Notes: generated by a model from the sequence alone, not told the origin. A stretch of DNA of 32,000 nt from Ferroglobus placidus DSM 10642 (GCF_000025505.1 NC_013849.1:420001-452000), one strand, 5' to 3'; counted from the first letter of the stretch, positions 13,772 through 21,093 are shown. Made by a program: numbers and translations.

Positions 13772-13870
13772 CGGATTTGATGTGAAGCCCTTTAACTTAA
13801 CCCATTGAGAACTTCTCTCAGGACTGTAGAGGAGAAAGGATTTATTATTTAAGCAGAAAGAGAGACATAT
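13772..13870 (+). promoter_or_regulatory. Leader-like region of the left repeat array (conserved boxes plus TATA-like element)
   Basis: Box 1 CGGATTTGATGTGAAGCCCTTTAACTTAA (13772-13800) and box 2 TATTTAAGCAGAAAGAGAGACATATG (13846-13871) recur in inverted orientation at 21065-21093 and about 21030-21055. TTTATTATTTAAG looks like an archaeal TATA element pointing into the array. Confidence 0.45.
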
Positions 13871-14189
13871 GTGGGGGAGGAGGGAGAAGACTATGATACG
13901 AGTCCGCCCACGGGTGCTGTGGCATCCATTCCAATCCCCCGGAGAGTGAGGACGGTGATACGAGTCCACTAAAGGTAGCCCTCGCAGTAGATTTGATAAA
14001 ACAATCGTTGCAGAGGGAGATGAGGATGATGATACGAGTCCACTCCTGCATAAAGAACATTGGCCTTTGTAAGTTCAGGCCCCGTTGCAAGAGTGAGGAC
14101 GATGATATGAGTCCACTTGATCAGCTCCCCAAAGTCAGCTTTTTCCGGCGGTTGCAAAGGGGCCGGGGGGATCAGAGATGATGACGGGC
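13871..14189 (+). CRISPR. Degenerate CRISPR-like mini-array (5 repeats of 33-39 nt, 4 unique spacers of 29-40 nt), no cas genes nearby
   Basis: Repeats lie at about 13871-13907, 13937-13969, 14007-14043, 14084-14116 and 14151-14189. The consensus is roughly GTTGCAA(A)GAG(T)GAGGACGATGATACGAGTCCAC. The 3' ends are spaced 62, 74, 73 and 73 nt apart. The core GATGATA(C/T)GAGTCCAC is conserved, while the 5' purine-rich part varies in sequence and length, which is atypical for an active array. Confidence 0.4.
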
Positions 14190-14659
14190 ATTAGTATAGT
14201 TTCAGCAGAGTCAAAATGTAGTTAAATGGGCCCAGGCAAAGCTGAGAGGGTACATAAGGGACAGGATGGAGAGCTACCACAGGCACCTCACCCACATCTC
14301 CCCCTACACCTACGACCCCGAGGACAAAATCAGAGCTCATAGATCTTCTTACCGTATGCGAGCTTTGTTGAGAGAGGAGTAGTTGAAGAGATGTGCTGGG
14401 ATTTTGAAGAGGTGAGGGAGAGCAGGGGTTTGCTGGAGGCCCTCCAGGACGTGTGCTCCCCGGCTGACGGGGAAGACAGCCCCCAAAAAGAATGTTGCAG
14501 ACGATTTTGCTACTCAATGAGAATTGAACTTTGATTGCAGAAATAAAGCATCGTAAAGTTTTGTAAAGATCCAAGGAAGATTTGAAACGCTTTTTTGGAG
14601 GAACGGGGGAAAGTGTCTTTATATTTTCTGAGATAGTAGATTTGTTGAGGTGATGAAGG

Positions 14660-16021
14660 ATGGGTGCGAAATTGAGTGTGTTTGTGCTGGTGCTGGTGGC
14701 ACTGGGTATGGTAGTGTTGCCTGCAGTGTCAGCGAAGCCAATGGGCAATGGATACATGAATCCGGTTCCAGCCTCTGACAGCAGTACAGAGAATAATACC
14801 AATGTAGCCGTTACCACCACGGTTCCATCTACCAGTGAAAATAATACCGCAACTGTAACTGTCACTCAGAATTTGGTCAACCCCTCTCCCAACCCCTCCC
14901 CCAATCCGAATCCGATCCGCCAACAGGGACCGCATCCCTGGATACAGCATCACCAGAAGCCACATCTCTGGAAGCACAAGCATCCCTGGATACCGCATCT
15001 CTGGAAGCACAGAAACCAGAACCAAAATCAAACTCAGCAGGCCCTGGCCCACAAAATGAAAGGGGAGGAGAAGTGGGAAAACGCTAAAGAGAGATTTGAA
15101 AAGGCGAGAGAATGGTTTAACGAAACCAGAAAAAAGGTTGAAGAGGCCAGAAAACAGGCAAGAGAGAAAAGATTTGAGGCCTGGAAGAAGCATCTCACAG
15201 CCTGGGTTGAAGTGGCAAAGAAATGGGTTGAAAGGGTTGAACTCAGAATTCAGAACCTGAAACTGAACAATGAAAGCAAGGAAAGGTTGATGAGCAAGCT
15301 TCAGGAGGTTAAAGACAGTTTAAATAGTATAGAGAGTGAAATCAATGCCTCGCAGAACTACACTGAGCTGAGAGAGAAGGCAAGGGAAATCAGAGAGTTG
15401 TGGAAAGAGTTAAGGCAGGAGATGAGACAGGCTGTGCAGGAATATGCGATTGATAAGTACAGCGAAATTCTTGAAAGGTTAAAGCAGGTTAGAGACAGGC
15501 TTCAGGATGCAGGTGTTGATGTTAGCAATCTAAATGAGAAGATTGAGGAGATAGGGAGTGCTGTGGACGATTTAGAAAATTACATAGGAACAACTGAATT
15601 TCCGGAGAAGGTGAGAGAAGTCAACCAGCTATTCAGAGAAGCCTTTAAGACTGTTAAAGAACTTGTCAGAGAGGCGAAACCGGTGCCGAAACATGGTTTT
15701 GTCTATGCCCGCGTTAATGGTAGCTTTGAGCTGAGCGGGAACTTCAGTTCGGTGCAGATAAAGGTAAAGAATGGCAGTGTATCAATTCCCGAGAATGTGG
15801 TGGTAAAGAGGGTTAACACTTCAGGAGTTGAAATGATTGTTGCCAGAGGTAGCTTTACAGCCAGCGGAAATGGAGAGTTCAGAATACTCGCTCACGGTAG
15901 CGGTGAACTCAGTCTGAGCGGCGAGGGTTATTACAGAGTCAAAAAATCACCTGCTGAGCCTATGACAGACGAGATCGAGTTAGGCAATGAAACTGTAACT
16001 GTAACATTCGGCCAGAGCTGA
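14660..16021 (+). CDS. Secreted protein: signal peptide, PN/PS linker, His/Trp/Lys repeats, long Trp-containing coiled coil, C-terminal beta domain
   Basis: ATG at 14660 lies 7 nt after GAGGTGA. A TATA-like CTTTATATTTT lies at about 14617-14627. Signal peptide MGAKLSVFVLVLVALGMVVLPAVSA. Linker NPSPNPSPNPNP. Repeat HPWIQHHQKPHLWKHKHPWIPHLWKH. A charged helical region spans about aa 140-330. Confidence 0.85.
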   Translation: MGAKLSVFVLVLVALGMVVLPAVSAKPMGNGYMNPVPASDSSTENNTNVAVTTTVPSTSENNTATVTVTQNLVNPSPNPSPNPNPIRQQGPHPWIQHHQKPHLWKHKHPWIPHLWKHRNQNQNQTQQALAHKMKGEEKWENAKERFEKAREWFNETRKKVEEARKQAREKRFEAWKKHLTAWVEVAKKWVERVELRIQNLKLNNESKERLMSKLQEVKDSLNSIESEINASQNYTELREKAREIRELWKELRQEMRQAVQEYAIDKYSEILERLKQVRDRLQDAGVDVSNLNEKIEEIGSAVDDLENYIGTTEFPEKVREVNQLFREAFKTVKELVREAKPVPKHGFVYARVNGSFELSGNFSSVQIKVKNGSVSIPENVVVKRVNTSGVEMIVARGSFTASGNGEFRILAHGSGELSLSGEGYYRVKKSPAEPMTDEIELGNETVTVTFGQS

Positions 16022-16077
16022 ACATCTGGCAGCTGAAGATCTGAAAGCAGGCTGGTAGGGAGGGGGGGCTGAACAGT

Positions 16078-16362
16078 ATGAAGAAAAAATACATACTGGT
16101 GCTCCTGATAGCCATTGCAGCGATCTTTGCAGGCTGTCAGGGGAAGAGGGCTGAAAAGGGAGCTTCAACAACCACAACCACAACCACAGCCACACAGGCA
16201 CCCTCACAGGCATCTACACCTGCAATCACTCCTGCAATCACACCCACAGCCACAACACCGCAAACTCAGCAAGAAATCAATGAGAGCCTTGAGGATCTGC
16301 AGGAGATTGAGCAGTTAATACAGGATCTCAAGAGTCTCGATAATGTTCAGCTGAACGTTTGA
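16078..16362 (+). CDS. Small lipoprotein-like secreted protein with Thr/Pro-rich linker
   Basis: MKKKYILVLLIAIAAIFAGC has a lipobox-like FAGC. It is followed by TTTTTTTATQAPSQASTPAITPAITPTATTP and an acidic helical tail. T-runs follow the stop (tgattattttttagcttttttg). Confidence 0.75.
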   Translation: MKKKYILVLLIAIAAIFAGCQGKRAEKGASTTTTTTTATQAPSQASTPAITPAITPTATTPQTQQEINESLEDLQEIEQLIQDLKSLDNVQLNV

Positions 16363-16504
16363 TTATTTTTTAGCTTTTTTGCCGTTGCCGTTGCGACCAA
16401 CCATCAAATTAACCAATTTTGCTTTTCAGAATTTGGAAGTATAGGCTCTTATCATCGCCTCTACTCCTCGCAGCTTCTTTGTTGCGGGTTGCAGGGGCTT
16501 GTCG

Positions 16505-16692
16505 GAGGTTAATCAAAAAATGAACCCGGGGTTAATTAAGATTTTGAACCCGGGGTTAATTAACCCAGTTAATTTACCGGGGGTTAATCAAGGATAATGA
16601 ACCGGGGGTTAATTAACCGGGGGTTAATCAAAAAAATGAACCCGGGGTTAATTTACCAGAGTCAATTAGAGATAATTTACCGGGGGTTACTT
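16505..16692 (+). repeat. GGGGTTAAT iteron cluster 2 (about 7 good and 3 degenerate copies)
   Basis: GG(A/G)GGTTAAT occurs at 16507, 16528, 16552, 16579, 16604, 16619 and 16644. Degenerate copies are AGTTAAT (16567), GTCAATT (about 16661) and GGGGGTTAC (16682). Spacing alternates between about 13-15 and 23-25 nt. The extended unit is GATAAT(G/T)(A/T)ACC(G)GGGGTTAAT(T/C)AA. Confidence 0.85.
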
Positions 16693-20433: not shown

Positions 20434-20437
20434 AAGG

Positions 20438-20758
20438 GTGAGGAGTGAAGAACACTTCTTCGGGTTTCTCAACAGAGGTCTGCTGAAGTTTGCAAAGCTG
20501 ATGAAGGAAAAGGTGCGCTTTCAGGATGCCATCGAGATTGCAATGAGCAGCAACGATGTTGAGCTGTGCTTTGTGGCCGGCCTGCTCTTTGGCTCTCTGA
20601 TGCCTGATGAAGCTGTGATGGGGTTCATTGAGCTTGTTGAGATGGTGGTTGGAATGCTTGAGAAGGGTAAAGCAGACAGCGAGATTCTTGAAACTCTGGA
20701 TAGTCTGAGAAAAAATTTCACAGCTGACACTGTTGGCAGCACACCCGTGGGTGGGTGA
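20438..20758 (+). CDS. Hypothetical helical protein (106 aa)
   Basis: GTG at 20438 lies 4 nt after GAGGTGA, which overlaps the upstream stop. No family recognised. Confidence 0.55.
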   Translation: MRSEEHFFGFLNRGLLKFAKLMKEKVRFQDAIEIAMSSNDVELCFVAGLLFGSLMPDEAVMGFIELVEMVVGMLEKGKADSEILETLDSLRKNFTADTVGSTPVGG

Positions 20759-20787
20759 GAGGTGGGAGGAGAAGCCCCAGGAGGGCA

Positions 20788-20868
20788 GACTCCTTCTCAT
20801 TGTTAATTTATAGAGTAGTTTATAGAGAAGGAGGGCCGGGTTTCAGGGTTTAAACCCTTGCCACCCCC
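20788..20868 (+). ncRNA. Degenerate copy (A) of the D-arm-less tRNA-like element
   Basis: It has a 9-bp hairpin CTCCTTCTC...GAGAAGGAG, then GGCCGGGTTT, a T-arm-like CAGGG-TTTAAAC-CCTTG and CCACCCCC. It shares the 18-nt identical block GAAGGAGGGCCGGGTTTC with copy B. No convincing 5' acceptor partner, and the T-loop is non-canonical. Confidence 0.35.
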
Positions 20869-20916
20869 AGAAACTGCGCAGAGGAGATCTCCCAGAACTG
20901 CGCGAAAAACTGCAGA

Positions 20917-21025
20917 GTGGACTAATATCATCGTCTTCGTCCTCCTCAACACCTTCCCGGGTGTCCGACCTCCGGCCGGCTTTAAACGGTGGACTCGTAT
21001 CATCGTTCCCATCCTCTTTTGCAAC
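20917..21025 (-). CRISPR. Degenerate CRISPR-like mini-array, right/inverted copy (2 clear repeats, 1 spacer)
   Basis: Minus-strand repeats are GTTGCAAAAGAGGATGGGAACGATGATACGAGTCCAC (21025-20989) and GTTGAGGAGGACGAAGACGATGATATTAGTCCAC (20950-20917). They are separated by a 38-nt unique segment that itself contains a CCTCCGG hairpin-like motif. Confidence 0.35.
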
Positions 21026-21093
21026 CCCTCGCCATATGTCTCCGTTTCTGCTTAAATACCTATTTTAAGTTAAAGGGCTTCACATTAAATCCG
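21026..21093 (-). promoter_or_regulatory. Leader-like region of the right repeat array (inverted copy of 13772-13871 boxes)
   Basis: The reverse complement reads CGGATTTAATGTGAAGCCCTTTAACTTAAAATAGGTATTTAAGCAGAAACGGAGACATATGGCGAGG. It matches both left-arm boxes but lacks the roughly 45-nt segment that separates them on the left. Confidence 0.4.

Follow-up and report, generated by a model that had tools for sequence, protein, structure and literature searches.

Type VII is a type of CRISPR-Cas system that was described in 2023 (PMC10910872). Its effector is made up of Cas5-Cas7 and the beta-CASP nuclease Cas14, RNA is what is cleaved, and the spacers are mostly antisense to transposon genes (PMC10910872). 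Variable, degenerate repeats are a published hallmark of type VII arrays and are normal in working ones (PMC12669027). According to the 2025 CRISPR classification paper, Ferroglobus placidus is the only complete genome with type VII, that is, with Cas14-Cas7-Cas5, without adaptation genes and with heavily substituted repeats. The DNA analysed here is a stretch of 32,000 nucleotides from F. placidus DSM 10642 (GCF_000025505.1, NC_013849.1:420001-452000), referred to below as the window, in which two inverted arms of boxes and repeats enclose a cassette of genes between positions 13772 and 21093. An earlier note on this DNA had called the arms CRISPR-like and had offered three readings of them: decaying or mobile-borne mini-arrays, the ends of a transposon-like or invertible element, and a new class of repeat-spacer locus. 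We conclude that the arms are in all likelihood two short convergent CRISPR arrays, each behind the same leader, and that they belong to the archaeal subgroup of the type VII repeat family. The arrays are orphan additions to the known, rare type VII class and not a new class, and the third of those readings is thus superseded by the type described in 2023 (PMC10910872).

The arms are built on a 16-nt core, GATGATAYGAGTCCAC, of which there are six copies split between the two convergent arms, each arm standing behind the same two conserved boxes. When the window was searched for the core GATGATACGAGTCCAC with <=3 mismatches, four copies were found on the plus strand (13892-13907, 13954-13969, 14028-14043 and 14101-14116) and two on the minus strand (20989-21004 and 20917-20932), and there were no further copies in the 32 kb window beyond these six. 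The chance expectation for this core is 0.11 copies and the number of shuffles reaching 6 was 0/100. Box 1 (13772-13800 and 21065-21093) is identical at 28/29 nt between the arms, counting 13773-13800 and 21065-21092 together with the preceding C, and box 2 (13846-13871 and 21033-21058) is identical at 24/26. Both boxes are unique inverted pairs in the window, where 0 are expected by chance. Over these 26 and 29 nt the leaders are 92-97% identical, while between and behind the boxes the sequence has wholly diverged. These results confirm that boxes and repeat units are present in two inverted arms. The features of the arms are as follows, the scores being those of a model of foreign repeats (model R1) that is described below.

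13772-13800, plus strand: distal box 1 of the left leader, CGGATTTGATGTGAAGCCCTTTAACTTAA, 28/29 to the right arm
13846-13871, plus strand: proximal box 2 of the left leader with the TATA-like TATTTAAG inside, 24/26 to the right arm
13872-13907, plus strand: repeat L-R1, core TATGATACGAGTCCGC, without the GTTGCA 5' part; 12.3 bits, E 0.0067
13908-13933, plus strand: spacer L-S1, 3' boundary uncertain
13934-13969, plus strand: repeat L-R2, core GGTGATACGAGTCCAC; 8.5 bits
13970-14006, plus strand: spacer L-S2, 37 nt
14007-14043, plus strand: repeat L-R3, full length, GTTGCAGAGGGAGATGAGGATGATGATACGAGTCCAC; found by core search, alignment and model
14044-14083, plus strand: spacer L-S3, 40 nt
14084-14116, plus strand: repeat L-R4, GTTGCAAGAGTGAGGACGATGATATGAGTCCAC; best match of the model, 15.3 bits, E 7e-4
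14117-14189, plus strand: trailer, an S4-like stretch with a T5 run at 14140-14144, then the degenerate R5 at 14151-14189
21065-21093, minus strand: box 1 of the right leader
21033-21058, minus strand: box 2 of the right leader, TATA-like element inside
20989-21025, minus strand: repeat R-R1, GTTGCAAAAGAGGATGGGAACGATGATACGAGTCCAC; 11.6 bits, E 0.011
20954-20988, minus strand: spacer R-S1, 35 nt
20917-20953, minus strand: repeat R-R2, ending GACGATGATATTAGTCCAC, a T5 run then following at 20909-20905; 9.2 bits

Alignment of the repeat units gave the consensus GTTGCnGAGGAGGnTGAGGACGATGATACGAGTCCAC, in which the 3' half is well conserved and the 5' half is variable and purine-rich. The mean column identity is 59% across the 55-nt repeat-plus-flank alignment, and the arm repeats are 75-93% alike over 28 nt, with lower values in the 5' half. 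GTTGCA is found in left R3, R4 and R5 and in right R1. Five repeats had been claimed for the left arm in the earlier note, and four of them, those with the core, hold; the fifth unit (14151-14189) retains GTTGCAAAG and GATGATGAC but not GAGTCCAC and is therefore counted only as a degenerate terminal unit. The 3' ends of the repeats are spaced 62/74/73 nt apart in the left arm and 72 nt apart in the right arm. The spacers are 34-40 nt long and mutually unrelated, and the 3' boundary of L-S1 is uncertain because L-R2 lacks GTTGCA. The arms do not have the form of a canonical adaptive array of types I-III, since their repeats are not near-identical and match no curated CRISPR-DR family.

For comparison, five independent archaeal type VII loci were picked by Cas14 homology alone, blind to the arm sequence. 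The sequences of Cas14, Cas7 and Cas5 were taken from the experimentally studied locus (data S5 of PMC10910872), and a search with an archaeal-subgroup Cas14 profile gave about thirty archaeal Cas14 proteins, of which the DNA around five was examined. One of these loci, L152, is a true type VII locus, as its Cas7 is 41% identical (E 2e-55) to that of the experimental system and its Cas14, aligned along almost its entire length, is 34% identical (E 6e-91). The arrays of these loci have the following repeats.

L150/L151, Methanophagales: repeat GTTGAGTAACAACtATGATAnGAGTTGAC (family form GTTnnGTAACAACtATGATAnGAGTTGAC), period 64-72 nt
L152/L153, metagenome contig: repeat GTTCnGTnnCAACtATGATAnGAGTTGAC (the same family form), three arrays
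L155, metagenome contig: the same repeat family as in L150/L151 and L152/L153
L156, metagenome contig: repeat GTTTTAGATTGGCTATGATAAGAGTCAAC
L154, Lokiarchaeota: repeat TTCrATGATAnGAGAAwTT

In these foreign arrays, which have a period of 61-75 nt, the core ATGATAnGAG is followed by TTGAC, TCAAC or AAwTT, and the many substitutions fall chiefly in the degenerate 5' halves, as in the arm repeats. The arms have the same core with flanking AC and GT, which places their repeats in the family that stands beside Cas14-Cas7-Cas5 in other archaea, and their spacings of 62/74/73 and 72 nt lie within the foreign range; the CRISPR-like architecture proposed for them is borne out in this way. In the degenerate array of L156, GAGGACGATGATATGAGTCAAC at 10696-10717 is identical at 21 of 22 positions to GAGGACGATGATATGAGTCCAC of arm repeat R4. 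The sequence-only model already referred to was built from 83 distinct non-Ferroglobus repeats and was run over the whole window, on both strands and unfiltered. Its top seven matches include all six arm repeats, each on the right strand, with scores of 15.3, 12.3, 11.6, 9.2, 8.7 and 8.5 bits, whereas in 614 kb of control DNA its matches were confined to the array of L154 itself and to the 16-mers that had been the ground for selecting those loci. In the foreign alignment six columns are invariant (G18, A19, T20, A21, A24 and G25), and all of them are kept in 6/6 arm repeats. The other match among the top seven is a solitary core-like site at 16446-16465 on the minus strand, GCGATGATAAGAGCC (12.2 bits, E 0.007), just upstream of the central one of the iteron clusters described below; this site could be what is left of a single repeat, or its likeness to the core could be due to chance.

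When the repeats were folded, the same small hairpin was predicted in every member of the family, with a stem of 4-5 bp, the loop AUGAUAnGA, and two nt between the hairpin and the end of the repeat. Most loci have CAAC/GUUG as their stem, whereas L156 has UGGC/GUCA and F. placidus has GGAC/GUCC. In the joint alignment columns 11-14 pair with columns 25-28 (pairs 11-28, 12-27, 13-26 and 14-25), 48 cells are changed on both sides, and the covariation score was reached in 0/500 shuffles, with slid controls far lower. F. placidus supplies GC pairs at stem positions where other loci carry AU or CG. Thus the 3' end of the arm repeats, TCCAC as against TTGAC, is compensated on the other side of the stem, as is expected of a functional relative.

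The likeness of the arms to the archaeal type VII arrays (L150-L156) extends to the core (AC)nATGATAnGAG, the 4-5 bp hairpin around it, the GTT start, the period of 61-75 nt, the substitutions mostly in the 5' half, the presence of several arrays per genome with a common short leader (as in L152) and the interleaving with non-cas genes, for example the archaellin genes that lie between the L156 arrays. The arms differ from these arrays in their repeats, which are 33-37 nt long, contain a purine-rich insertion before the hairpin and have the stem GGAC/GUCC, and in being very short (3 and 1 usable spacers), convergent, and more than 8 kb from any visible cas gene. The experimental system (Altae-Tran et al. 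2023, PMC10910872; contig Ga0116245_10002768) is of the same CRISPR-Cas type as the comparison loci, and its repeat likewise has GTT at the start and, two nt after the hairpin, AAC at the end, and is accompanied by no adaptation genes; however, that repeat, GTTTAAGTCCCATATGGTGGGGTTAAAAC, is 29 nt long, lacks the ATGATAnGAG core and is far more uniform, and the array lies directly behind cas5. The arms also resemble the orphan and mini-arrays of archaeal viruses and plasmids, such as the virus-borne ones of Medvedeva et al. 2019, which are reported to have one to a few spacers and no cas genes beside them and to rely on the effector of the host; in addition, the DNA around the arms looks mobile, containing iterons, tRNA-like fragments, a Csx3 ring nuclease and a Rep-like winged helix-turn-helix (wHTH) protein. 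The repeats of those mini-arrays are reportedly identical to those of type I or type III arrays of the host, and their spacers reportedly target related viruses. Unlike such arrays, the arms have degenerate repeats of the type VII family. Of the three readings in the earlier note, decaying or mobile-borne mini-arrays is the closest, but decay is not required by the data, and carriage on a mobile element is plausible and unproven.

Several observations weigh against the assignment of the arms to type VII. Cas14, Cas7 and Cas5 are not encoded in the window (tblastn, and hidden Markov models built from five Cas14, three Cas7 and three Cas5), and to the right the genes called as far as about 6.5 kb beyond the end of the window (window-equivalent 38.5 kb) gave no match to a cas family. 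The foreign arrays adjoin their cas genes or sit within about 1.5 kb of them, and the arms are far off. It has to be said here that the arrays of L152 and L156 are separated from cas by unrelated genes, so that scattering as such is not unusual for type VII, but the distance at the arms is much larger. The Cas14 of F. placidus was not among the listed matches of the single-sequence or the archaeal-subgroup profile searches. Because of the shortness of the motif, the model gives only modest individual E-values, 7e-4 to 0.11. In length the arm repeats measure 33-37 nt and not 29-30 nt, and they end in TCCAC and not in TTGAC or TCAAC. L-R1 and L-R2 lack the GTTGCA start, and right R2 has T at the nearly invariant G23. 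Lastly, no spacer target was found among phages, plasmids, IMG/VR or the window itself, barring partial matches of the first spacers at 21303-21397; L-S2 had no match in any of these and no match was found for L-S3.

Some of these same observations would also fit an unlikely alternative, namely that the arms are relics of type VII arrays whose transcription and use have ceased and which are left over in a junk region rich in repeats. Two left repeats have lost their 5' part, R5 is degenerate, right R2 is altered at a nearly invariant position, no cas genes are near, no spacer target came to light, and the surroundings (10.4-14.6 kb and 20.8-22.2 kb) are mostly non-coding and full of other repeats. 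What speaks against relics is that the leaders have kept their near-identity despite complete divergence around them and that all six repeats retain the hairpin and each of the invariant loop positions. Moreover, it is normal for type VII arrays that work to have degenerate repeats (PMC12669027). Repeat variability and the absence of cas genes next to the arms had been put forward as difficulties for a CRISPR reading; both are real, yet they are published hallmarks of type VII and not problems (PMC12669027).

If the arms are type VII arrays in working order, a probable course of events can be outlined. The TATA-like element in leader box 2 would direct transcription to start just before or inside the first repeat, and from TATTTAAG and the usual archaeal TATA spacing of about 26 nt the start sites would fall near 13876 (plus) and 21028 (minus). 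The left transcript would comprise 4 repeats and 3 spacers and the right one 2 repeats and 1 spacer. T5 runs lie 24 nt past left R4 (14140-14144) and 8 nt past right R2 (20909-20905), and these are likely archaeal terminators which would probably stop the transcript behind the last intact repeat. Because of the T5 run behind each array the transcripts need not enter the cassette, and the view that the arms carry promoters driving the cassette is therefore doubtful. Each repeat folds into the 4-bp GGAC/GUCC hairpin that presents the invariant loop AUGAUAnGA, as the covariation with the foreign repeats shows. Going by the literature on another type VII system, the precursor would then be cut within the repeats, and the CRISPR RNAs (crRNAs) would be loaded into Cas5-Cas7, which would recruit the beta-CASP nuclease Cas14 against complementary RNA. 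The left arm would thus probably yield three crRNAs and the right arm one. L-R1 lacks the 5' part but keeps the hairpin and tail, which is enough to form the 5' end of the first crRNA. With no adaptation module, the repeats would have drifted everywhere but in the GTTGCA start, the hairpin and the loop.

Since Cas14, Cas7 and Cas5 are not encoded in the window, the arrays are orphans and an effector would have to come from elsewhere. With the effector genes lying outside the window, the arrays would serve the host operon in trans, and presumably they act together with the type VII operon that is reported elsewhere in F. placidus. Cas1 and Cas2 domains were not found in the open reading frames (ORFs) scanned, which did not include every small ORF. 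Among the scanned ORFs a single Cas-related domain was found, that of a Csx3 ring nuclease lying 6 kb rightward of the arms. It is the stand-alone Csx3/Crn3 protein Ferp_0509 at 27064-27372 on the plus strand (PF09620, E 1.7e-30), and it sits within a DUF6744-MoxR-VWA-DUF2201 island, of which a syntenic counterpart in GCA_054002995.1 (L140) has no Csx3; an anti-type III function on mobile DNA is possible for it. The island's DUF6744 protein, encoded at 27546-28475, matches Ferp_0510 of F. placidus DSM 10642 with 100% identity.

The partial matches of the first spacers concern a hairpin-rich locus close to the right arm. The L-S1 region, over 13905-13946, is identical at about 33 of 40 positions to 21397-21360 on the minus strand, R-S1 at about 30 of 40 to 21341-21303 on the same strand, and these local scores were reached in 0/300 shuffles, whereas the other spacers show no such likeness. 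The first spacers of the two arrays thus resemble two adjacent pieces of the stretch 21285-21525. This stretch is GC-rich and has six hairpins closed on CCUCCGG-type loops (UCC on the plus strand, GGA on the minus strand), with fold z-scores of -6.6 on the plus and -4.9 on the minus strand and no Rfam match. One could speculate, although we think it improbable, that the leader-proximal spacers are diverged copies of these adjacent pieces; this could mean that type VII arrays, without Cas1-Cas2, gain spacers from nearby or repeated genomic sequence by recombination or templated copying, or equally that the orphan arrays are a self-directed regulator of this structured RNA or of a repeated element family and are carried on an integrated replicon that borrows the Cas14 machinery of the host.

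Contigs from two independent F. placidus sequencing runs (Logan) are 100% identical to the window. The assemblies of both runs break at 14036, 30 nt into L-R3, and that of SRR3923786 resumes at 14294. Within the window no 25-mer of 14007-14323 recurs, and the breaks lead to the prediction that a second copy of R3, or of the whole of 14007-14323, would be found elsewhere in the genome.

That the arms might instead be the ends of a transposon-like or invertible element, subterminal, inverted and multi-site, with the repeats as recombinase sites comparable to those of Tn7 or Mu, was the second reading in the earlier note, and we regard it as very improbable. The inverted layout, with the best-conserved boxes outermost and several spaced copies of a motif in each arm, would suit such ends. 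However, no transposase, integrase, invertase or other recombinase domain was found in any cassette ORF (Pfam, PADLOC, PHROGs), and no target-site duplication is seen, there being no direct repeat that flanks 13766 and 21099. The same motif occurs in long one-directional arrays beside Cas14-Cas7-Cas5 in unrelated archaea, and a paired-motif scan of metagenome contigs, which gave seven unrelated tandem repeats, and of viral contigs, which gave none, revealed no other such element. When viral contigs were scanned with the single 16-mer core, 15 matches were obtained, which is chance level, and the matches listed for genome contigs were likewise single chance ones. The iterons, ACCsGGGGTTAATTwA, also speak against such ends. 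They form three clusters (13360-13441, 16507-16698 and 17680-17865) with 12 or more copies in all, and as the first of these lies outside the left arm, the iterons straddle that arm and the arms do not bound the iteron system; the earlier note had listed the iterons with the cassette.

The 478-aa wHTH protein encoded at 18595-20031 resembles replication-initiator PHROG families of phages and plasmids (E 7e-7), and together with the iterons it looks like a replicon-like module; judged from these elements, the DNA between the arms looks like a replicon remnant and not like a transposon. The arrays may be carried on an integrated element. Nor is the cassette one of orphan genes throughout, as had been stated, because the 184-aa protein encoded at 17944-18498 on the minus strand has 92 representative homologues. 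This protein belongs to no Pfam or PHROG family, and its confident all-beta structure model (predicted local distance difference test score, pLDDT, 88.7) had no Foldseek match in PDB or BFVD. The MoxR-VWA-DUF2201 island is shared with L140 only from 22265 onwards, and L140 has no arms. Pyrimidine-rich direct repeats of the CTACCAC type lie at 11657-11741, 21747-21830, 21880-21965 and 22226-22308. They are 76% identical over 89 aligned positions (about 85 nt), including an exact ACCCTCCAACATCCAAACC, and they flank a stretch of about 10 kb that holds both arrays; tRNA-like fragments adjoin the right copy, and the repeats are possibly former attachment sites. The segment 12500-13300, which lies left of the iterons, is non-coding over about 800 bp and is made of short tandem motifs, namely units of CATCAACC(T/G)CTG, of GGATGGTTTTTGG/GGCGTTAGCTTTTTTGGA and of GTCAGGG. 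Further away, 30-6508 on the plus strand encodes two large secreted proteins of Big_7 immunoglobulin-like domains, with nine matched stretches in the 1665-aa one and cysteine-rich KCGWK-type repeats at the termini.

It is hardly credible that the arms are a non-CRISPR repeat array, such as a protein-sponge or regulatory RNA, whose type VII likeness is coincidental. An RNA that binds protein could be read from the purine-rich GAGGAGGA stretches and the neighbouring hairpin-rich 21285-21525 (z -6.6), and the lack of an Rfam family match would fit such a reading. Against it, the foreign repeat model has arm repeats as six of its seven best matches, one foreign repeat is identical to an arm repeat at 21/22 positions, the period is shared, the stem changes are compensatory and the host is the one complete genome known with type VII, and chance agreement on all five counts is very unlikely. 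Three further candidates were tried and rejected: a C/D-box small RNA, as the UGAUGA box is not conserved and has no CUGA partner; a protein-coding acidic repeat (EEDEDDDTSP), as the arms are non-coding, with unit spacings that are not multiples of three and intervening stop codons, and are skipped by the gene calls on public contigs; and a tRNA or any Rfam family, as ARAGORN and Rfam gave no match for the arms even at E 10, with no Rfam CRISPR-DR match either.

Taking the arms as type VII arrays, the finding bears on the newest and one of the rarest CRISPR types, and F. placidus DSM 10642 is a cultured isolate that is reported to have it. The two leader-equipped orphan arrays are concrete candidates for native crRNAs. 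For annotation, standard CRISPR finders and Rfam miss arrays of this kind, and the GTT start, the 4-5 bp stem and the AUGAUAnGA loop provide a signature by which degenerate arrays can be found. The arms may also serve as a small natural example of the origin and alteration of arrays in a system that lacks Cas1-Cas2, a question that was raised in PMC11786720.

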